NCBI GenBank assembly: GCA_023266935.1 | Contig: JAHFOF010000002.1 | Span: forward strand, 4,469 to 68,468 | DNA length: 64,000 bases | Direction: 5' to 3' | Origin: a bacterium | Lineage (GTDB): Bacteria; Patescibacteriota; Minisyncoccia; Phycocordibacterales; Zambryskibacteraceae | Shown here: piece after piece, positions 46,506-57,338 of the stretch | Numbering within the stretch: position 1 is the stretch's first letter | How the letters are laid out: every line of letters begins with the position of its first letter | Notes under the pieces: model-generated | What the model was told of the DNA's origin: nothing | What the model saw: the letters and a program-made list of their open reading frames with translations, nothing else | Database searches by the model: none | Translations under genes and position numbers: made by a program

Positions 46506-47360
46506 TTATATTCGATTAAAAACTTTCAGTTTGGCCCGAACAATTTTTTTCATTTCTTCTACACCTTCGGCCATGAATTTATAAGGAGCTATTTCATCCG
46601 AACTCATGATACCCTTCTCGATTCCCTTTTTATAAGCCAAACGAAGTTCAGTATTTATATGAACCACACTGATACCCGCTTCTATCGCCTTTCTTACTTC
46701 TTCATCAGTATTTCCAGAAGCCCCGTGGAGAACTAAAGGCACTCCGACTGCTTTATGAATTTTTTTGATTAAAGGGATGTTTAATTTTGGTTCACCGGTT
46801 CGAATCAAACCATGCACATTTCCCACCGACGGAGCGAAGAGATCAACCATCGTTTCCTCTACAAACTTTTGAGCATCTTCTGGATGAGTTTGAGTAGCTG
46901 GAGAAACTCCATCAGGAATTTCATCTCGAAGAGTTGAACCAGAACCAATAAAGCCGAGCTCTCCTTCTACAAGAATGTTTGGATTTTTTTCTTTGGCATA
47001 TTTAACAACCTCTATGGTCATCATTTCATTTTCAAAAAATGGTTTCTCTGCTCCATCTATGATGACTGAATCAAAATTATTATTTATGGCTTCTTTAGAC
47101 GCTTCCACCGAATAAGTGTGGTCTGCATTCAGAAAAACGGGCTGACCTTTTTCTTTTTCTACTTGAACCAAAGCTCTGATTTCTGCCACACCCAAAAAAC
47201 TTCGTTCATTCTCCGAGACCCCAATAATTACTGGTACCCCGAGTTCTTTGGCTGACTCCACTACTGCCTTGAATCCTTCTGAATCAGAAACATTAAAATG
47301 CCCTATAGCAATTTTCTTTTCTTCAGCTTCTTTGATGTATTCGAGTAGGGATTTCATCAT
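46506..47360 (-). CDS. fba: Class II fructose-bisphosphate aldolase
   Basis: ADH, VEGELG, GNVHG, LVLHGASG and INTE motifs; true start MMKSLL. Confidence 0.92.
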   Translation of the reverse strand: MMKSLLEYIKEAEEKKIAIGHFNVSDSEGFKAVVESAKELGVPVIIGVSENERSFLGVAEIRALVQVEKEKGQPVFLNADHTYSVEASKEAINNNFDSVIIDGAEKPFFENEMMTIEVVKYAKEKNPNILVEGELGFIGSGSTLRDEIPDGVSPATQTHPEDAQKFVEETMVDLFAPSVGNVHGLIRTGEPKLNIPLIKKIHKAVGVPLVLHGASGNTDEEVRKAIEAGISVVHINTELRLAYKKGIEKGIMSSDEIAPYKFMAEGVEEMKKIVRAKLKVFNRI

Positions 47361-47379
47361 GATGATAATTTTAGCATAG

Positions 47380-47406
47380 AAAAAACCCACCATTGCTGGT
47401 GGGGTT
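47380..47406 (-). terminator. Intrinsic terminator closing the tas/array transcript
   Basis: Minus strand CCCACCA-GCAA-TGGTGGG-TTTTTT, directly after the last array unit. Confidence 0.85.
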
Positions 47407-47689
47407 GTCTGACAATTACTGGCTCGTTCCAAAGAACAGGCAGTTCTACGTCAGACAATTCTCGACAACTGTGCTTTCGTCTTGAAAGACAAAGAAATAC
47501 ACGTCGAGAAATTTTGCGGACAAAAGATAGAACGCTCTGTGAACAACAACAGCGTCGTCCGCATTATACAAAGAACTTTAGAGACACACTACTCCTCGTT
47601 CCTAAGAACAGTTGGCGAGTCGTCTCTCATAAACATTTGGTAAGGCAATTCTAGCATCGTCTGAAAGACACAACCGCCTACGCCTTACC
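47405..47689 (-). ncRNA. Stem-loop TIGR-like guide-RNA array, 5 units downstream of the tas gene
   Basis: Units 47405-47458, 47459-47510, 47515-47563, 47580-47627 and 47639-47689. On the plus strand each is outer arm-A-N9-(T/A)C-inner hairpin-A-N9-(T/A)C-complementary outer arm. Confidence 0.88.
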
Positions 47690-47694
47690 TTTTT

Positions 47695-48789
47695 CTACGC
47701 GGCTAGCTTGGCTCGCTTTTCGGCGGAACCTCCTTCGAGGTCCCACCATTCTCCGTAGAGCCATTCGGCGAACTTGGTAATCGTCCGCCAGAGTGCCATC
47801 TTGTGGATGTGGCCGTCGGTGTAGCGCTTCTTGCCACCGACTACGACCACTTCTGGATGCTTCTCGCGGAGTTTCACCTTGTACTCGCGGAGCTTCTTGC
47901 CCCAAACCGAGTCAGCCCGACGATTCATCTGGTCTCCGAAGAGATACATGGCCTGCCGACCAGCCGGGTTCCAGTTTGAAGTCTGGTTGCGACGACGACG
48001 AGCGAATGTCCCATCGGTGAGCACGTGCACTCCGAGGAAAGCCTTGAACTTGGGCTTGGTCTCGAAGCGACGGATGTCGCCGACGGCACTAATGATGCCG
48101 GCGGCAATCGATGATCCACATCCTTCAACCTTGCCGAAGATGTCGGTGAACACATCGAGCGCCTTGAGAGCTTTGGCCAAATCCTTGTCTCGAGCACTTT
48201 CTTCTGCTTCGAGATTCTGGAGGATGACCGAGGAAGCCTTCTCCTTATCGAAGAGGTCCTCGATCTGGCCTTCCGGATACGGGCCTTCGGGTCGACGGAA
48301 AGTCTTCCCAATAAAGCTCGTCCGGAGACGCTGTTCGCACGCGATGCGAGCCTTCATGGCTTCGATTCGCGCTCGATAGCACTCGGACACTTCGATGAGC
48401 GCCCTGTCACGAGCCCGCACTTCGTAGAAAAGTTCGGGCTTGGTGAAGATGAGTCGAGCGAGGAGCGTCGAATCTCCGTCCTTCTCCGCGTCACCACGCT
48501 CCGCCTTCAAGCGGTACGCAGGAATGCGGAAAACCTTTGCCCCCAAACCCTCCCCTGTGCGGGAAAGGGCGTAGGCCAAGCTGTCACCGGATCCTCCGAG
48601 AACCATCGCGATGCGATCGTTCTCCATGAGTCCGGTGCGGACGAATTCGAGTTCATCAGCCTCGGTCTTCTGGACCAAGACCTTAAACTCATCGCCATGA
48701 CGAATCGAAACTTCCGTCGGACGTGCCTCGCCTTCCGCGGTCTGCTTGACCCGGTGGCGAATGCCGATCACTCTACCTGTAGAAATCAA
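47695..48789 (-). CDS. Tas-like protein: degenerate RuvC-like domain + coiled coil + IS110/Nop-type RNA-binding domain
   Basis: GKVEGCGSSIAAGIISAVGDIRRF..KFKAFLGV and RRRRNQTSNWN C-terminal region; no IS110 SG catalytic serine; TTG start with GAAGGAG SD; GC-rich. Confidence 0.8.
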   Translation of the reverse strand: MISTGRVIGIRHRVKQTAEGEARPTEVSIRHGDEFKVLVQKTEADELEFVRTGLMENDRIAMVLGGSGDSLAYALSRTGEGLGAKVFRIPAYRLKAERGDAEKDGDSTLLARLIFTKPELFYEVRARDRALIEVSECYRARIEAMKARIACEQRLRTSFIGKTFRRPEGPYPEGQIEDLFDKEKASSVILQNLEAEESARDKDLAKALKALDVFTDIFGKVEGCGSSIAAGIISAVGDIRRFETKPKFKAFLGVHVLTDGTFARRRRNQTSNWNPAGRQAMYLFGDQMNRRADSVWGKKLREYKVKLREKHPEVVVVGGKKRYTDGHIHKMALWRTITKFAEWLYGEWWDLEGGSAEKRAKLAA

Positions 48790-48828
48790 AGTACTCTCCT
48801 TCTCGTCCGTTCAGGACATTGGGGGTTA

Positions 48829-48926
48829 GGGACAACAATTCAAACGTCTATTTAAGACATCAAGTAAATCGTCCCCGTGCTGTACATAGTACGTATCGTT
48901 ATTTGACACAGTGTTCATCGTACAGC
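48829..48926 (-). ncRNA. Stem-loop TIGR-like array, 2 units upstream of the tas gene
   Basis: Units 48829-48875 (GGGAC/GTCCC) and 48879-48926 (GCTGTAC/GTACAGC) with the same A-N9-(T/A)C spacing. Confidence 0.85.
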
Positions 48927-48932
48927 CAGAAA

Positions 48933-48960
48933 ACTATACTCAAATATAAAGAATTGTCAA
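48933..48960 (-). promoter_or_regulatory. Sigma70-type promoter for the array-tas-array transcript
   Basis: TTGACA(48955-60)-16 bp-TATAGT(48933-38); predicted TSS about 48926, the first base of the first unit. Confidence 0.75.
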
Positions 48961-49013
48961 ATAAATTTATAAAAGAAAAAACACATCGACTGACTATGCT
49001 ACAATATTTATAA

Positions 49014-49994
49014 ATGTACGATTTAATTTCTATTGGTGACACTGTCATAGATTGTTTTATAAAACTTAAAGAAGCGGAAGTTTCGGGAACACCAGACAGC
49101 CCGGATTATAAAATTTGCCTACCCTTCGCAGAAAAAATACCTTATGAGAGCGTGAAGGTTGTGCCTGCAGTAGGAAATTCAGCCAATGCTTCTGTTTCTG
49201 CTTCTAAACTTGGATTAAAGACTGGTTTGGTGACCAACATCGGGGATGATCAGAATGGTCAAGACTGTTTGGATACTTTCACTAAAGATGGAGTGGCCAA
49301 AGATTTTATAAAAGTGAACGTGGGGAAAAAAACTAACTATCATTATGTTTTGTGGTACAGCCCAGACAGAACAATTTTAGTAAAGCACGAAGATTTTGAA
49401 TACAATCTGCCGAACATCGGTGAACCCAAGTGGCTTTATCTTTCTTCGCTTGGAGAACAGACGGTTGAATATCATAAACAGATTTCAAATTATTTAATTT
49501 CTCATCCAAACATCAACCTCGCCTTTCAACCAGGAACATTTCAAATAAATTTTGGAGTTGAGAACCTTAAAGATATCTATGCTCGAACAAAAATATTTTT
49601 TTGCAATGTAGAAGAAGCTGGGAGGGTGCTCGGGATAACTACCCTCGGCGTTCCTGAACTTCTTAAACGCATTCACGCCCTCGGTCCACAAATTGTGGTG
49701 ATTACCGATGGGCCAAAAGGAGCCTATGCCTACGACGGAGCACAAACCCTGTTTGCCCCCGGATTCCCAGAACACGAACCTCCATTCGAACGTACCGGAG
49801 CTGGAGATGCTTTCGCCTCAACTACTACTTCGGCTTTAATCCTCGGCAAGGATTTACCCACCGCCCTTTCTTGGGGGGCAGTAAATAGTATGAATGTCTG
49901 TAGATTCATCGGCGCCCAAGAAGGACTGCTCACTCACGAACAAATCGAAGCCGAACTTTCCAAAAATCCAACTTATAAAGTTTCTGCTATCTGA
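49014..49994 (+). CDS. PfkB-family carbohydrate kinase
   Basis: GNSANAS, VITDGPKGA and ERTGAGDAF motifs. Confidence 0.92.
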   Translation: MYDLISIGDTVIDCFIKLKEAEVSGTPDSPDYKICLPFAEKIPYESVKVVPAVGNSANASVSASKLGLKTGLVTNIGDDQNGQDCLDTFTKDGVAKDFIKVNVGKKTNYHYVLWYSPDRTILVKHEDFEYNLPNIGEPKWLYLSSLGEQTVEYHKQISNYLISHPNINLAFQPGTFQINFGVENLKDIYARTKIFFCNVEEAGRVLGITTLGVPELLKRIHALGPQIVVITDGPKGAYAYDGAQTLFAPGFPEHEPPFERTGAGDAFASTTTSALILGKDLPTALSWGAVNSMNVCRFIGAQEGLLTHEQIEAELSKNPTYKVSAI

Positions 49995-49998
49995 TTAT

Positions 49999-52900
49999 CT
50001 ATCTTCCTTGATTTAGATATTCTTGGAATGATTTTATGAGCGCGTCTAAACTTGCAACAACTGATGCAAGATTAGATTCTTGTTGATTCATAATTACAGC
50101 TGGTCCATGAACCGAACCTCCTCCGGTTGGCGCAGAGGTAGGACAGGCAGAAGGTGCTACTGCTGATACTGTTTGCGATGGGCTTGATTCACCAACTGAA
50201 TTCCTTGCGGTTACATAGTACGAATATGTTGCGCCAGGAGTAAATCCACCGGATGCTGAGGTCACACCACTGTCTGAGTAGGATGTACCTGATATGGTTA
50301 CTTGCAAAGGCATACCTCCATAGAAAGCATTGTTTCCACCGTAAATCGAATAAGAAATTGCATTCGACACTGCACTCCACGAGAGGCTGATAGTGTGAGA
50401 ATCACATGAACCTGATGTTGCAGATAATCCTGTTGGGACTACTGGGACTGTAGCTGTCGGCTGGCTCACATTTATTGTGACATTTGCTGAGGCTGTCGTT
50501 CCATTTGTACCAGTACAAGTAACTGTGTATGTAGTGGTTTGATAGATTGGACCGACTGATTGACTGTTGTATATCTCCCCTGCACCATTATTGTATTGAG
50601 TTCCTATCCAAGGAGCTGAACACGAAGAAACATTGTATCCATGCCAATCTAACACTGATGAAGTTCCGGGCAATACATTACTTGAACCAAAGTTATAACT
50701 TGGATTAATTGCAACTGTAACTCGAGGCGAAGGAACGACTATCACAGGAGAAACAGTAACAGTGGTATTCACTGTAGTAGAAATCCCAGCACTGTTATAA
50801 CATGTGGCACTATAGGTAGACGTTTGGGTTGGGTATAAATCCTTAAACACCGGCCACATTAGAACTTCATTTGGCCACAAACAACGAGCCGTATCCGCAG
50901 AAGAATTTAATGTAATCCTAGTTGATTGTCCCGCGGTAATTGATGTTGGGTTTGCGGTCAGAGAAACGGTTGGAGCAGTTGAGTTAAGTAATGGAGAAAC
51001 AGTAACTGTTAAATTCTTCATTGCATATGGACCACTCGCCCCGTTATAACATGTGATGCCATAACCTGTAGAAGCAGTTGGACTGATAGTCACAGAACCA
51101 CTTGTGTTTGTTCCTGATGAAAGAATCCCAACATTACAGGTAGTTGCGTTTGTAGCAGACCAAGTAATTGTTGTTGATTGGCCGACTATTATAGAACTTG
51201 GTGTCGCTATAAATGATATTACCGGCGTTTGAACAACAGATGTTTGAACGGTTAAACTATCATTTGCTGATACACCAGCACTGTTGTAACAAGTCATTGT
51301 ATAGGATGTTGTCTGTGTTGGGTAAACAGTAGCAGTGCCAGAAGTCGTTGTGAGTGTTGTCCACGGAGCAGAACATCTGGTTGTATTTGTTGATGACCAA
51401 GAAATAACTGATGGTGATCCACTGGTAACGATTAATGGTCCGGGAGTAAATGACAGCTCCACAGTTGGTACCGAAGGACTTGAAGATGTTTTGTAAATCG
51501 TCAGACTCTTTGTGTCACTTGGATTAACATCGTATGAATTTCTATATCCTTTGAGTGTATAGGTTGACTGATTTGCCCCCGTTACATTTGACCAAGAAAC
51601 AAAGAACGGATTTACAATTATGTTTGCATAGCCTGAATCTGTTTGACGAGAGACACTATCTACGCCGTTTGTAGTCTGGATTAAATCAATATGGTTACAT
51701 CCATTGGCAATATAATTCAGATTAGCAATAGCTAATGCACTAGGATCAGAAACATTTAGAGTAATGCCTTGCATAGGACTCTGAGTATAGCTTGTCCCAT
51801 TTGCTGTAAATGAAGTGATATTGCAACTTCCGTTGTTCGCGGTCGTAGTTTGGGTTGTGCTGTTTTGAACAGTAACAGTTACACCATTGTTGGCTGACGG
51901 AGGAATGGAACCGTTTATACTGTCACCGTTATAACAAAAAACATAATATGGCATGGTGGCAGTTGGATATACCATTTGACTACCACTTGGACCAGAATTT
52001 CCCCTAACATCATTTGGGCCCAAGCATTTAGTAGCATTCGTTGACGTCCAATTAATGGTTGCTGATTGCCCTGCTGTAATTGATGTTGGGGTTGCCCAAA
52101 CATTGACAGTAGGAGTTGAGACTGTATTAGTTATGGTGGTTGTGTTAGTAGGAGTGCTTATTTTGGTCAAATAATCCTCTGCGCTCCATCCTTGAAAATT
52201 GCCCGGCCAACGAACCATCCACCAACGAGCGCCATTTTGACTACTCAAATCTGTTGTGACTGGACCCATAATCAAGGTGCCAATTGTTCCCGCCGGAAGT
52301 GTTTTGAGTAATCGTGCTGTTGCGCCTTGGGCTTCGCGCACATTTAAATTCTGTGAGGCCCTCACCGTGTCCCAAGGTTTAAGTGGAGAAACTGAGGCTG
52401 CATTTGGATCAAATGGCACAGACAAACTTGCAATAGCTCCGGTGACAGCTGCATAAGCACAATTGTTTACCAAAACTTCATCTACCCCGTCAGCTCCTAA
52501 CTTTGTATTTGTGTATTGTGTGTATGATCGAGCATCTGCAATTAATTTAACATACCCCGGAATTTCATATGATCGTGTTCCCATAACAAACATGGCATCG
52601 TTAGCTGAATCAATCCAAGGTTGAAGGAGTGGGCCAACCACGAAATAACTGACTAGCCCAATGACTATTTGTTTGTAATTAAGACTTATATGTACTTTTG
52701 ATATTAAGGTTCCGCTTTGATTGTCTTTTTGAATGGCTCGACACTCATCCTGAAGTCCGGCTACAGTAATTCCGGGATGTGTCCAAGTTGTATTATCGGC
52801 TTGAATCTTCTGACTCGCCCAAGTTTGAGTAGCAGGAATATAAACTATCTGATAAGCAGCAATCCTTCCTGAAGCAAGCCAAACGCTTACAGCCCGATTA

Positions 52901-53403
52901 TCACTCGATGTTGGTAAATTGGTCGCATTTATAAGAGACATATTGGCTCTATAAACAGAGCTGCCAATGCAACCCTCCTTATTACTTTCTTTATCTACTA
53001 ATCCACAGTTTTGATTATTACCAAGAACATCAACGCTTGAAATATCTAAGTGGGTCCAATCTGTCGCACCGGTCTTATCATCTGTTTTTTTCACCATCCA
53101 AGTCCTTGCATTTGGAGAATAAAGAACCTGCCAGGTTTTGTTGTAATTATGAACTGTATATACATCAGCCAAGCCATTTACATAATTCACCACCCCACCT
53201 TGACTACCAACAACCCCCGCAGGAGAACTGGGTGATCCACCAACCACATCACCGCCTGAATCTTGAGCCACAAGAGCCTGAATCTGGGCTTGTAACGATT
53301 GAATCTGAGCTTGAAGTTCAGCGATTGTCACTGCGCCTGCGGTGGGAGTAATGGCTGAAAAAACAAACACAAATAGAAAAGCGAACGATAGCAGTTTTTT
53401 CAT
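49999..53403 (-). CDS. Large secreted/surface protein (SH3-like domain, Thr/Ser-rich Ig-like repeats, Fn3)
   Basis: Signal peptide, IAELQAQIQSLQAQI, LNVR..WWMVRW..GWSAEDYL, repeated SITxGQS..WxS..C..Y..TC. Confidence 0.8.
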   Translation of the reverse strand: MKKLLSFAFLFVFVFSAITPTAGAVTIAELQAQIQSLQAQIQALVAQDSGGDVVGGSPSSPAGVVGSQGGVVNYVNGLADVYTVHNYNKTWQVLYSPNARTWMVKKTDDKTGATDWTHLDISSVDVLGNNQNCGLVDKESNKEGCIGSSVYRANMSLINATNLPTSSDNRAVSVWLASGRIAAYQIVYIPATQTWASQKIQADNTTWTHPGITVAGLQDECRAIQKDNQSGTLISKVHISLNYKQIVIGLVSYFVVGPLLQPWIDSANDAMFVMGTRSYEIPGYVKLIADARSYTQYTNTKLGADGVDEVLVNNCAYAAVTGAIASLSVPFDPNAASVSPLKPWDTVRASQNLNVREAQGATARLLKTLPAGTIGTLIMGPVTTDLSSQNGARWWMVRWPGNFQGWSAEDYLTKISTPTNTTTITNTVSTPTVNVWATPTSITAGQSATINWTSTNATKCLGPNDVRGNSGPSGSQMVYPTATMPYYVFCYNGDSINGSIPPSANNGVTVTVQNSTTQTTTANNGSCNITSFTANGTSYTQSPMQGITLNVSDPSALAIANLNYIANGCNHIDLIQTTNGVDSVSRQTDSGYANIIVNPFFVSWSNVTGANQSTYTLKGYRNSYDVNPSDTKSLTIYKTSSSPSVPTVELSFTPGPLIVTSGSPSVISWSSTNTTRCSAPWTTLTTTSGTATVYPTQTTSYTMTCYNSAGVSANDSLTVQTSVVQTPVISFIATPSSIIVGQSTTITWSATNATTCNVGILSSGTNTSGSVTISPTASTGYGITCYNGASGPYAMKNLTVTVSPLLNSTAPTVSLTANPTSITAGQSTRITLNSSADTARCLWPNEVLMWPVFKDLYPTQTSTYSATCYNSAGISTTVNTTVTVSPVIVVPSPRVTVAINPSYNFGSSNVLPGTSSVLDWHGYNVSSCSAPWIGTQYNNGAGEIYNSQSVGPIYQTTTYTVTCTGTNGTTASANVTINVSQPTATVPVVPTGLSATSGSCDSHTISLSWSAVSNAISYSIYGGNNAFYGGMPLQVTISGTSYSDSGVTSASGGFTPGATYSYYVTARNSVGESSPSQTVSAVAPSACPTSAPTGGGSVHGPAVIMNQQESNLASVVASLDALIKSFQEYLNQGR

Positions 53404-53474
53404 TACTTTTGGATTATTTTTTTAACAGTATTAATTATAACTCTAAAATATTTATACGCATATAATCACCTTAT

Positions 53475-56400
53475 CTAGGGGTTAATATAACTCTGAAGGG
53501 ATTGAAACATTATATTCAGACCGGCCATAATTGAAGCCAGATTGGTATTATTGATAAAAGTAACTGGGTTTGAAACTGTTATGCCGATCCCCGTGCCAGC
53601 ATCATTTCCAGCTTGATCCCAAACTGTTACCTGAACACTATGTGGACCATTAGAAACTGTAGTTGAATTCCAAGACATACTAAAGGGAGCAGATTGTATC
53701 GGTGATCCTAAATTTACACCGTCTACTGCGAACTGGACTCTGGCTATCCCAACATTGTCTGTGGCGTTCGCTGAAATATTTACTAAACCAGAAACCGTTG
53801 CACCTTCTTGTGGTGATGTGATTGAGACATTTGGATGTATCGTGTCGGCTCCTTGAGCCACAACATTCACAATTGTACTATTGCCTGCATTTATTCCGTT
53901 GCCAGCACAACTAATATTATAAGTTGTTGTTTGACTTAACGGCCCCACAGTTTCTGTTCCTGATGTAGATTTGTTACCAGACCAACCGCCGTATGCTGAA
54001 CATGACGTAGTATCTGTTGAAGACCAGATGATATTTACTGATTGACCAGAGGCAATTGGATTCGCACTTGAAGAAATAGAAACCGTTGGATTGTTCGCAC
54101 AAGATGCGGGTGAAGAAATATTTACCGGATTAGAAACTGGAGAGATGTTGCTACCATTCACAGCCTTAACTCTATAATATAAATTAATATTCGGTGAACC
54201 CACATTGTCACTAAACGACGTTCCAACTATTCCTGTGCTTCCAGCAGGATTTCCAAATCCACTAGTCGCTAACGTACTCCTTTCGACGGTATACGAAGCT
54301 GCTCCTGATACAGAACCCCAAGACAAATTAATTTCTCCAGAATTACATGCACCAGCTGACGCAGTTAAACCCGTTGGAGCTACCAAGGCTGTGGCTGAAC
54401 CATTGGCCACAAAACAGCTATTTGAAGCAGTTATCCAAGAACCAAATGAGCAACCAGGATATGCAGATTTAGTGTGAACTTGAAGAATAGAGCCAGTCTG
54501 GCCTGTCGGGCAAGAAATAATTTGTTGTTCTGAAAGTGGTTCAGCACACGAAGACACTGAAAGTGGCGTGGAATTATTTGTGCTGTTTGAAGCACATGTG
54601 TTAGATACTGTTGCCCAAGAACCAAATAAACAACCCAAACTGGATGACTTGGTTCTAACCTGAACAATAGATCCTGTTTGACCAGATGGGCAAACTACAG
54701 TTTGTGTTTCAGAAAGTGGGGATGGACAAGAGGCATCTGCAGCACTTGCACATGTGTTCGAAGTGGTTGTCCAAGACCCAAATGTACAACTTGGATAAGC
54801 TGATTTTGTGTGAGTTTGAGTGATGTGTCCGGTTTGGCCAGATGGACAAGCTATGGTCTGAGTCTCAGCAAGAGGAAATGTGCACGTTGTGTTTGTTGTT
54901 GTCGTGGTTGGAGTTACCACACAAGTGTTCGAGGTTGTTGTCCAAGATCCAAATGTACAACTTGGATAAGCTGATTTTGTGTGAGTTTGAATGATATGTC
55001 CTGTTTGGCCAGATGGACAAGCTACTGTTTGTGTTTCGGAAAGCGGAGATTGGCAAACAGTATTAGCTGAATCAGCAAAAAACAAAACAGATATCGTACA
55101 CTCACCCATAATAGCGCCAGTGGTATAAGTCGAACCAGAAAGTGTCCCCTCGCAACCCTTGACCGAAACAACATGCTGTCCAATATTTGAAGAAATAGTG
55201 AAAATGGCCTTGCTACCAGATATTATCAATTGAGAAGTCGGTGAAATAGTTCCACCTGGTCCAACATTTGTTGAAACAACAAATGAACAAAGTGAAGAAA
55301 CTTTTCCTGTGGTAGAAACAGCAGGAGAAACGCTTGTATCGTTCAGGGCTTTCAATGTATACGAATGAGTACTACTAAAAGCAAGATTTGTATCAGAGAA
55401 AGCCAGAGCTGGACCTTCATAGACCAACGCTCCATCTCTATAAACTTGGTAGCTTGTGGCTCCATCCACTGCATTCCAAGAAAGGTTTACCCAATTATTA
55501 CTACAATAGCTCGGCGAAGCCACAAAACCTGTTGGGGGAATATTGGTTAAATAAACTTTTTTCTGAACTACACTCTCGACAGCAACATTCATTGGTACTG
55601 TATTAGAAAGTACGCTTCCATATTGTGACGCAAATCCAACCAAATATGATCCTGGATCTATATTTGATTTAAGGATCGCATTAATAGTGGTTATGCCCTC
55701 TGAATCATTACTAGCAGAAACTGTGGTATACCATTCTCCCGCCGCCCCAATTCCAGTAAAAAGCTCAAGTCTGGCACCCCCGGGAACAGAATAATTTAAA
55801 TCTGTCCTAACTCTTGTTTTAATAGTGAACTTACCTCCAACCGAAACAGGATTGGGTGTAATAGAAATCACTTCATCGGGCACATCAGCATTTGTGGTTG
55901 AGTCATCTGAAGAAACTACCGTTAGCGGGAGAGTGTTGGAGACTAAAACAGGGGCAGAGGAACCATTATATTGACCATAACCAACTCTATAGATTCCAGG
56001 TGGAACTTCTGTTGTATTCAAATCCGCAACAATAGTGGTTATATTGTTCGAGTCAGTATTGGAGGAAACTGTTTTATACCATATTTCATGAGGACGATCG
56101 TTCGTATAAAGCGTCAGATAGGTTAAACCATAAGATTGATTAGATGATTCAGGTACGACTTTTGTTTTTATAATAAATCTTCCACCAACCTTGATTGGAT
56201 TCGGGCTAAGAGAGATAATATCTGACAAAACTCTTTTTTCTGGTTCAGTAGTTTTTTGAGTACTTGTCTCAGAATTTGACTTGGGTTCGCCAGAAGATAC
56301 AGCGGTTGTATCATTATTCTTAAACACATTTGGCACAACTGAAGACACTAGATTCGACACAAACCCAGAAACTGTATCCATGAGTGAATTAAGTTTTGAT

Positions 56401-57338
56401 TTTGGAATAACATGCACAGATAGATTGCCCTCAACACCTCCCCCTTTAATAGCAATAGTCACATCACCGACAGAATTTGCTTTTATGGTTGGACCAGCAG
56501 TAATTGAAGCGATAGATGGATCAGGATTTCTAGCATTCATAGGGGGTTGGGGAGACATTTTTTGGTCAAATTGGTCAAGAACGACCACAGAGATTACCTG
56601 AGAGTCACCGACTTTCAATGTAATAGAACTCGGATATATTTTAATATCAAACGCTATTGGTATGTTTATTGCCACTTTTTGAGTATCGCCTTTTAAAGAA
56701 GCGCACCAATCAATCTCTCCATCATTTTTATAAAATCTTTTGGTATTTTTTTTTGTATCTGGGTTATAGTCTACCGCCGATGAATAGCTGTTTAAGCATT
56801 GCCAAAAAACAACACTCGTCTGATGTTCGCCGTTTGATCGATCTTTATCTATATGTATATCGCATTCATCTAATCGGCACATTGAATCTGATCCTTTATA
56901 TGTATAGCTGCCATCCTGCCCCATGTTGTCTACAGAACAACTATTTTTATAAGAGACTTCATCTCCACCCTTATTAACACATGAAAAACTAAGATCAAGG
57001 CTGGGGCATAGACCATCCTTGCGACTCTCTAATTTTGATTTTATGCGGGCAATCGCAGAATCCATTTTTAATTTACAGTCCTTAGACAGATTCTCGTATG
57101 ATGGATTGTCACTTTGATTCTGGCTGGCTGTAGTCGAAGTTTCTCCTCCTCCACTGCCTCCAGTATTATTCAATTTACACAATGATGGATCGGCAATGCA
57201 TGGATCTTCGTTAGAAACCTCCACTGGCAATGCTGGAGCTTGGAGTTCGGGGATTAACATCACACTCGCTTTGACTTCAATTTGATATGTAAAGAAAGAG
57301 GTAACCAGCAGAAGAAAGACTATTAGAGACTTTTTCAT
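53475..57338 (-). CDS. Large secreted/surface protein (Ig-like, Fn3, Cys-rich repeats, C-terminal bacterial Ig-like domain)
   Basis: Signal peptide, Fn3 motifs, four CxxPLxExQxxxCPxGQTG repeats, ATDNVGIARVQF. Confidence 0.8.
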   Translation of the reverse strand: MKKSLIVFLLLVTSFFTYQIEVKASVMLIPELQAPALPVEVSNEDPCIADPSLCKLNNTGGSGGGETSTTASQNQSDNPSYENLSKDCKLKMDSAIARIKSKLESRKDGLCPSLDLSFSCVNKGGDEVSYKNSCSVDNMGQDGSYTYKGSDSMCRLDECDIHIDKDRSNGEHQTSVVFWQCLNSYSSAVDYNPDTKKNTKRFYKNDGEIDWCASLKGDTQKVAINIPIAFDIKIYPSSITLKVGDSQVISVVVLDQFDQKMSPQPPMNARNPDPSIASITAGPTIKANSVGDVTIAIKGGGVEGNLSVHVIPKSKLNSLMDTVSGFVSNLVSSVVPNVFKNNDTTAVSSGEPKSNSETSTQKTTEPEKRVLSDIISLSPNPIKVGGRFIIKTKVVPESSNQSYGLTYLTLYTNDRPHEIWYKTVSSNTDSNNITTIVADLNTTEVPPGIYRVGYGQYNGSSAPVLVSNTLPLTVVSSDDSTTNADVPDEVISITPNPVSVGGKFTIKTRVRTDLNYSVPGGARLELFTGIGAAGEWYTTVSASNDSEGITTINAILKSNIDPGSYLVGFASQYGSVLSNTVPMNVAVESVVQKKVYLTNIPPTGFVASPSYCSNNWVNLSWNAVDGATSYQVYRDGALVYEGPALAFSDTNLAFSSTHSYTLKALNDTSVSPAVSTTGKVSSLCSFVVSTNVGPGGTISPTSQLIISGSKAIFTISSNIGQHVVSVKGCEGTLSGSTYTTGAIMGECTISVLFFADSANTVCQSPLSETQTVACPSGQTGHIIQTHTKSAYPSCTFGSWTTTSNTCVVTPTTTTTNTTCTFPLAETQTIACPSGQTGHITQTHTKSAYPSCTFGSWTTTSNTCASAADASCPSPLSETQTVVCPSGQTGSIVQVRTKSSSLGCLFGSWATVSNTCASNSTNNSTPLSVSSCAEPLSEQQIISCPTGQTGSILQVHTKSAYPGCSFGSWITASNSCFVANGSATALVAPTGLTASAGACNSGEINLSWGSVSGAASYTVERSTLATSGFGNPAGSTGIVGTSFSDNVGSPNINLYYRVKAVNGSNISPVSNPVNISSPASCANNPTVSISSSANPIASGQSVNIIWSSTDTTSCSAYGGWSGNKSTSGTETVGPLSQTTTYNISCAGNGINAGNSTIVNVVAQGADTIHPNVSITSPQEGATVSGLVNISANATDNVGIARVQFAVDGVNLGSPIQSAPFSMSWNSTTVSNGPHSVQVTVWDQAGNDAGTGIGITVSNPVTFINNTNLASIMAGLNIMFQSLQSYINP
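54417..55055 (-). repeat. Four intragenic repeats, each encoding an approximately 45-aa 4-Cys module
   Basis: Two copies are near-identical at DNA level (e.g. CCAAATGTACAACTTGGATAAGCTGATTTTGTGTGAGTTTGA). Confidence 0.85.

Follow-up and report, generated by a model that had tools for sequence, protein, structure and literature searches.

Stem-loop TIGR-Tas systems that have arrays flanking tas on either side, hairpins between the spacers and CGA as a box C have already been described for the candidate phyla radiation (CPR), and 2,559 stem-loop arrays have been catalogued (Xu et al., 10.64898/2026.09.09.750476). According to the same work, the dead TasR of such a CPR system does not cleave DNA, binds it and represses transcription in a guide-dependent manner; a clade of inactive CPR TasR proteins was also noted by Faure et al. 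(PMC12045711). In both works, the way spacers are acquired and the natural targets are said to be unknown. The locus considered in this study lies in a 64,000-nt stretch of contig JAHFOF010000002.1 (assembly GCA_023266935.1) from a bacterium of the Patescibacteriota; this whole stretch is called the window, and all coordinates refer to it. The locus is a member of the already known TIGR-Tas family and one among thousands of annotated arrays. It is a stem-loop cassette inserted between two housekeeping genes, and we consider it quite probable that its TasR, likely a dead nuclease, represses non-self DNA by RNA-guided binding to it.

Family membership follows from a protein profile search, in which the 364-aa protein scored 135.8 bits against the NCBIfam model NF052498 (TIGR_Tas_endo; cut-off 100). 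A preliminary description, made from the DNA letters alone, had called the system TIGR-Tas-like; it is a full member.

Organization of the cassette

On the minus strand, the cassette runs in the order promoter, units 1–2, a 364-aa open reading frame (ORF), units 3–7 and terminator, and every element proposed in the preliminary description was found where it had been placed, including an array on both sides of the gene. The features are as follows.

47378..48995, minus strand: whole cassette, a ~1.6-kb insertion with approximate ends, flanked by the divergent -10 boxes of pfkB and fba
48933..48960, minus strand: sigma-70-type promoter TTGACA-16-TATAGT (11/12 consensus)
48879..48926, minus strand: tigRNA unit 1, spacer A 48917-48909, spacer B 48895-48887, 7-bp outer stem
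48828..48876, minus strand: tigRNA unit 2, spacer A 48868-48860, spacer B 48843-48835
48803..48818, minus strand: spacerless box D-hairpin-box C element (UG-4 bp hairpin-CGA), candidate Tas-binding operator, directly 5' of the Shine-Dalgarno sequence
48796..48801, minus strand: Shine-Dalgarno-like AAGGAG, 6 nt before the TTG start
47695..48789, minus strand: tasR, 364 aa, with RuvC fold (~2-120), coiled coil (~124-211) and Nop C-terminal domain
47639..47689, minus strand: tigRNA unit 3, spacer A 47679-47671, spacer B 47656-47648
47580..47627, minus strand: tigRNA unit 4, spacer A 47619-47611, spacer B 47595-47587
47515..47563, minus strand: tigRNA unit 5, spacer A 47554-47546, spacer B 47531-47523
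47459..47510, minus strand: tigRNA unit 6, spacer A 47500-47492, spacer B 47476-47468
47405..47458, minus strand: tigRNA unit 7, spacer A 47447-47439, spacer B 47423-47415
47380..47403, minus strand: intrinsic terminator, 7-bp stem (47403-47386) and T run
49014..49994, plus strand: pfkB-family kinase, flanking host gene outside the cassette
46506..47360, minus strand: class II fructose-bisphosphate aldolase (fba), flanking host gene outside the cassette

Transcription is predicted to start at ~48926, at the base of the unit 1 stem. The promoter scan and the terminator scan, each taken alone, were at shuffle level; several relatives have a similar promoter before the first unit and a similar hairpin with a T run after the last one. 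The positions of the promoter and the terminator suggest a single transcript across the cassette. Contigs of run X1, which may be the source sample, match the locus without differences, and one 406-nt RNA contig, possibly a DNA carry-over, spans 48283-48687 only; neither was used as evidence.

Guide RNA units

Read as RNA, each unit has the format outer stem-CG(A/U)-9 nt-UG-inner segment-CG(A/U)-9 nt-UG-outer stem, with a length of 48–54 nt and outer stems of 6–9 bp. The seven units (2 + 5) hold 14 distinct spacers of 9 nt each between C/D-like edge motifs, exactly as the preliminary description had read them. A short inner hairpin, which it had seen in every unit, is present in six of the seven (4 bp in units 2–7), whereas unit 1 has only a 2-bp inner closure and no real hairpin. 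The locus thus has an array of units with two spacers (within 8–12 nt) between box C and box D, and the array is of the stem-loop type: pairwise flank identity between its units is at most 18/40, which corresponds to variable palindromic outer stems and no edge repeats. The seven units could not be aligned in register by MAFFT, and an Rfam search gave no match at E up to 1.

The clustering of the units is well above chance. Upstream of tas, the unit pattern gave three overlapping matches (shuffle mean 0.033), a number reached by 1 of 2000 shuffles; downstream it gave nine (shuffle mean 0.067), reached by none of 2000. Nowhere else in the 544-kb genome do units cluster; four other unit-like matches there are isolated and have inner stems of ≤2 bp.

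Homologs carry such units too. On the gene strand, 60 of 71 homolog loci (own locus and duplicates included) have one or more units no further than 1.5 kb away, with six units in all on the opposite strand, and 361 of 365 units have spacers of exactly 9 nt. After removal of 12 duplicate loci, 303 units in 49 loci were retained.

The Tas protein

The NCBIfam models for IS110 gave 45 (45.1) and 18 bits, against cut-offs of 140 and 180; PF02371 was the sole Pfam match (E 1.4e-6), and a sequence search of the PDB returned only TaTasR (9MTY, E 7.6e-10). The AlphaFold model of the protein had a mean predicted local distance difference test (pLDDT) score of 91.9. In a Foldseek search with this model, 9MTY was the top match (E 1.1e-11), followed by IS110 recombinases and TasH. 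The predicted structure could be aligned to 9MTY with Z 20.8 and an rmsd (root-mean-square deviation) of 5.2 over 285 residues, the next-best folds being IS621 and ISCro4, and residues ~2–120 of the model align to RuvC/MOC1 resolvases (Z 9–10, rmsd about 3, 100–108 aligned). The protein had been introduced as a Nop-domain protein. Its Nop C-terminal domain and its TasR-like fold are upheld by structure prediction and Foldseek, and the N-terminal RuvC fold had been overlooked, as had the spacerless leader element and the fact that the block as a whole was inserted. Matches to the Nop5/Nop56 fold are weak (Foldseek E 0.03 or worse).

Profile alignments place the third catalytic acid of both TaTasR and IS621 in the column of K103 (K in 57 of 62 homologs) and the fourth at D106, which is retained. 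At position 11, where strand 1 ends, 48 of 62 homologs have R, and D is absent from the five most frequent residues (61 of 62 rows); at position 64, all 62 have L or F. The assignment of R11 and L64 to the first D and the E positions rests on strand position and on the IS110 motif. It agrees with R8 and V126 reported for CsTasR (10.64898/2026.09.09.750476). Three of the four RuvC catalytic acids therefore appear to be replaced, and because R11, L64 and K103 seem to stand in for acids within a predicted RuvC fold, the protein is likely a nuclease-dead TasR.

Accordingly, the protein has the N-terminal RuvC fold of an active TasR nuclease without its full set of four acids. It shares a likely inactive RuvC, an inner-hairpin stem-loop array and a Patescibacteria host with the inactive CPR clade. 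With 364 aa in total and a RuvC fold of only ~120 residues, it does not belong to the expanded CsTasR-like subtype. The wedge serine of IS621 (S241) aligns to D259 in the profile alignment, which together with the sub-cut-off score and the single copy sets the protein apart from IS110 transposases. A total of 726 homologs were found at E ≤0.001; the named ones are mostly from the Patescibacteria group, and databases label homologs 'transposase'. Among 62 homolog sequences, 28 columns are invariant.

Insertion site and distribution

DNA similarity to genomes of the same genus spans pfkB and fba and ends at the cassette edges. Of 19 relative loci fetched, 17 have both genes; 15 of them show a gap of 13–118 bp, and two carry unrelated inserts of 1.1–1.2 kb. 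One of the gapped loci comes from a genome marked unpublished (L032, G417), and the empty site is claimed on the other 14. The insertion point lies between two divergent -10 boxes of pfkB and fba, and the cassette was inserted without an obvious long duplication. The GC content at third codon positions (GC3) of tas is 0.67, compared to 0.29–0.41 in four neighbouring genes.

The tas gene is single-copy in its own genome. At unrelated sites, it was found in 2 of 21 other genomes of the genus, in 6 of 85 genomes of the family (one match weak and partial) and in 11 of 400 genomes sampled from the class. The cassette moves horizontally, with no evidence of a recombinase of its own. No Tas homolog was confirmed in viral contigs searched with two peptide patterns; the scan is of limited sensitivity, as a first one of genome contigs found none either.

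The divergent promoter region of pfkB and fba (47360-49016) is an insertion hot spot in the genus. Each of the two unrelated inserts (L028:313-1448 and L029:3357-4570) closes with a terminator ahead of the fba promoter. A 343-aa protein, by eye HD-domain dGTPase-like, is encoded in one; the other, of 1.2 kb, holds unassigned ORFs. A -10-like box stands 6–8 nt before the ATG of both pfkB and fba (48996-49016; 47360-47377), also in the empty sites of relatives, which is consistent with leaderless pfkB and fba mRNAs; tas instead has a strong Shine-Dalgarno sequence. Beyond pfkB, at 49999-57338 on the minus strand, two large secreted, repeat-rich surface proteins (1134 and 1287 aa) are encoded. 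They have a similar C-terminal tail, and the first gives a weak fibronectin type III match.

Targets of the guides

The predicted target was composed of spacer A followed by the reverse complement of spacer B (18 bp), as deduced from two published details, the C-5 rule and an overhang of 8 nt at the 3' end; an alternative geometry was also tried. In the bacterium's own genome (94% complete), no site with ≤1 mismatch was found for its guides in four geometries with gaps of 0–2. A few 2-mismatch sites occur, and 2–3-mismatch sites are overall similar in number to those of re-paired controls. The search was extended to 29 guides (14 + 15) of two other genomes, G499 (one 829-kb contig) and G500 (contigs 1 and 3 whole and 20 of the 22.8 kb of contig 2), so that 36 guides in three genomes gave 0 sites with ≤1 mismatch. 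When the 303 guides were compared with 1.09 Mb of DNA at six geometry/gap settings, six one-mismatch matches appeared, none of which came from a guide of this locus or lay in the locus or known genome of the guide concerned. The own genome yielded no target, which makes it likely that the targets are foreign, belonging to a phage, a mobile element or the host cell.

The composition of the spacers was also considered. Spacers A and B have a common position-specific base bias (p 1e-13, r 0.81; kin are not independent), as expected for selected, symmetric guides. The junction z of spacer pairs was 0.9 and 1.2 in two geometries, compared to 3.2–7.1 for held-out CPR DNA and 1.5–3.8 for a small set of viral DNA (15 kb). 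This argues against the capture of CPR-like 18-mers. The word excess within spacers was 0.16, against 0.32–0.58 in real DNA. Avoidance of stop codons in the predicted targets was significant against base shuffles and disappeared against re-paired spacers (z 1.0–1.8); it is explained by TA depletion.

Proposed mechanism and alternatives

Based on the architecture, the family membership, the RuvC-site substitutions, the insertion at an otherwise empty site and the lack of close self-targets, all observed above, we suggest the following pathway. One transcript would run from the promoter through units 1–2, tas and units 3–7 to the terminator and would be cut, probably by a host RNase, into ~50-nt hairpin guides. 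A TasR dimer may hold each guide through its two CG(A/U)/UG box pairs, with spacers A and B pairing with opposite strands of an 18-bp site. The bound complex would block transcription without cutting, and guide-free TasR on the leader hairpin described below could damp its own translation, matching the protein to the guide supply. Co-transcription, processing, the one-guide dimer and cleavage-free repression are proposed by analogy with published relatives; non-self targets, the leader operator and in-place rewriting are proposals of the present analysis only.

Several observations weigh against a repressor of non-self DNA. The cassette is dispensable, as its patchy occurrence indicates (2 of 21 other genomes of the genus), and the low junction z also fits guides without a real target. 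No natural target emerged: exact 18-bp scans of viral sequences, in one ungapped geometry and with no shuffled control, returned 0, 7, 0, 0, 1, 1 and 1 matches for units 1–7, in unrelated genes and with no contig hit twice; we read them as chance, the seven belonging to the most AT-rich guide.

The same observations lend themselves to a different explanation, namely a selfish or near-neutral mobile module whose guides are rewritten or drift without useful targets, the array mainly serving the cassette's own persistence or spread. Its patchy presence at unrelated sites, the foreign GC3, the missing targets and the low word excess within spacers all fit. However, the strong conservation of the protein (28 invariant columns in 62 sequences), the 9-nt spacer length kept in nearly all units of homolog loci, the positional base bias, the single copy and the absence of recombinase residues speak against it, and we find this explanation unlikely. 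Repression of the bacterium's own chromosomal promoters or genes is somewhat less probable still. Dead TasR is able to silence genes on the E. coli chromosome (10.64898/2026.09.09.750476), and a few 2-mismatch sites occur in the own genome; yet no site with ≤1 mismatch was found there or for the guides of the two other genomes, sites with 2–3 mismatches are matched by the re-paired controls, and spacers are not conserved among relatives.

A box C/D small nucleolar ribonucleoprotein (snoRNP)-like system for RNA modification or RNA binding, an intermediate on which Faure et al. (PMC12045711) speculated for the CPR clade, appears very improbable. A dead RuvC joined to a Nop domain does recall Nop5, and the units resemble C/D small RNAs, but the Nop5/Nop56 fold matches are poor, the cassette has no methyltransferase gene, guides to fixed rRNA sites would be conserved as these are not, and CsTasR was solved on DNA (10.64898/2026.09.09.750476). 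An RNA-guided transposon of the IS110/IS1111 type, with the hairpins as bridge or seek RNAs, is hardly credible and largely refuted already: the PF02371 match, the 'transposase' labels, the IS621 and ISCro4 folds and the insertion without a long duplication stand against a score of 45 bits under a cut-off of 140, replaced DEDD acids, D259 at the wedge serine, one copy, seven unrelated guides without a match to the junctions or the own genome, and unrelated cassettes at the same site.

The hairpin in the tas leader

In the cassette of the proposed repressor, a UG-hairpin-CGA element lies between unit 2 and the start codon. It has no spacer-box on either side and is followed by AAGGAG and the TTG start, so that AAGGAG occupies the place of a spacer B after an orphan box C. 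It is equivalent to a single Nop-binding half of a guide. With a strict rule, such an element was found in 31 of 43 tas leaders (those with enough upstream sequence), compared to 3 of 122 upstream-array and 5 of 201 downstream-array windows of 100 nt, and in 2–4% of other ORF leaders in three genomes (9/406, 31/820 and 33/852). A slightly looser rule gave 34 of 43 leaders against 12 of 381 in-gene windows, with a shuffle rate of 7%; in 33 of those 34 leaders a Shine-Dalgarno-like word follows the element after 0–49 nt (median 10). A first, loose test for orphan hairpins (38/43 against 70/129 controls) was not discriminating, and the stricter rules were used instead.

Because the element equals a Nop-binding half and the Shine-Dalgarno sequence takes the place of spacer B, guide-free TasR may bind the leader hairpin and repress its own translation; from the sequence pattern, we hold this to be an evenly balanced proposition. 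The hairpin might otherwise be a signal for processing or stability, or what is left of a unit at the edge of the gene. Three points speak against an operator: the element is missing from the leaders of L036 (71% identical, same genus) and 11 others under the strict rule, the loci are related, and the motif was defined after seeing the data. In the tas leaders of L056, L075 and L077, two spacerless box D/box C hairpins stand in tandem before the ribosome-binding site, a possible fit to the two subunits of a Tas dimer.

Besides the two papers cited above, Guan et al. (10.64898/2026.08.11.744272), a yeast paper (10.64898/2026.07.30.739390) and a review (PMC12385481) were compared. The leader hairpin was not found in the searched passages of these texts or in paper searches, though supplements may hold it, and duplicates with a kept scaffold and changed spacers were not found in the main-text sections covered.

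Spacer turnover in related arrays

No spacer pair is common to this locus and its relatives, the closest differing by 6 mismatches in 18. To follow spacers within loci, same-locus unit pairs were chosen by a flank identity of ≥32/40, which gave 23 disjoint pairs in 12 loci. Their flanks are 88% identical and their inner hairpins 75% (background 44%), whereas their spacers agree at 2.85 of 9 positions (background 2.3). L064 illustrates this with near-identical 16-nt inner hairpins between wholly different spacers. A spacer match of ≥8/9 occurs in four of the 1272 same-locus pairs: those of L063 and L084 are intact duplicates, and those of L043 (8 and 2) and L077 (8 and 3) retain spacer A with spacer B at background. 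In the orthologous loci L049 and L068, with 70% identity at four-fold sites, units range from 9 + 9 and 8 + 8 to 3 + 5 and 5 + 2. The 71%-identical relative L036 is unfit for measuring the spacer rate, as its four-fold sites are only 38% identical.

The duplicated units in relatives suggest in-place, half-by-half rewriting of guides inside a retained scaffold. Three points count against rewriting. Selection acts on the scaffolds, which may also undergo homogenisation; the mean for L049/L068 lies not far from neutral drift; and the units of the present locus are no recent paralogs, their flanks being too dissimilar, so that the suggested rewriting concerns relatives rather than this locus. As a tentative and rather doubtful generalization, stem-loop TIGR cassettes could gain guides by unit duplication and one-at-a-time rewriting of 9-nt spacers, not by capture of 18-bp protospacers, and at the same time balance protein against guides via a leader hairpin bound by free TasR.

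A diversity-generating retroelement was considered as the spacer source and found to be neither supported nor required, the nearby repeats being unrelated to the TIGR scaffold and three of five other array-bearing genomes being without an RVT_1 match. The own genome holds two RVT_1 genes, in the reverse transcriptase loci L096:1333-3575 (G000 C2) and L097:1330-3469 (G000 C11). The former combines two 123-nt repeats (80% identical) with a small adjacent ORF and another, target-like ORF, a layout typical of a diversity-generating retroelement; L097 resembles it, with a shorter reverse transcriptase frame. Two further arrays deserve mention. About 569 nt before tas, the upstream array of L049 contains a unit with an apparent 25-nt internal duplication-like insertion relative to its L068 ortholog, possibly a snapshot of spacer replacement. 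L011 (G073 C11) encodes a TasR homolog in a 617-aa frame with at least 18 units, whose inner segments of 4–9 nt and outer stems of mostly 7 bp mark a distinct guide subtype.

These comparative side results matter more than the locus itself, as the scaffold-kept duplicates make in-place rewriting testable and the leader C/D hairpin offers a simple route to testing autoregulation. If true, rewriting and the leader hairpin would be the first mechanism for TIGR adaptation and the first autoregulation circuit of the family. The cassette itself is compact and complete, with a promoter, seven guides, a likely dead TasR of 364 aa and a terminator in 1.6 kb and with known empty sites, and could serve as a small, easy-to-express repressor free of a protospacer adjacent motif (PAM).

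Comparison with known systems

The IS110 bridge-RNA recombinases (IS621, 8WT6-9; ISCro4, 9T56) are similar to the present system in the RuvC-like and Nop/Tnp folds and in paired guide loops. In contrast to them, it does not keep the DEDD residues and the catalytic serine, has seven independent guides, is single-copy and scores below the family cut-off. TaTasR (9MTY) is closer, being the best match in both sequence and fold, with the same domain order and 9-nt tandem spacers. It differs in its active nuclease (D11), 36-nt dual-repeat guides and CCA box C, whereas the present system has stems that covary, boxes of the CG(A/U) type and a RuvC that is likely dead.

The greatest likeness, judged by published descriptions, is to PateTasR and CsTasR. 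The proteins have in common the RuvC-coiled coil-Nop order, catalytic positions one and two occupied by Arg and a hydrophobic residue, and a CPR-type host, and the systems have in common ~50-nt two-spacer units, an inner hairpin, CGA/UG boxes and units on both sides of tas. The present cassette differs from both in that all its spacers are 9 nt long and in the spacerless leader hairpin, which is not in the sections describing them. CsTasR, with 547 aa, has an ~80-residue insertion in RuvC and a large C-terminal insertion, both of which the 364-aa protein lacks; PateTasR, with 329 aa, is closer to it in size.

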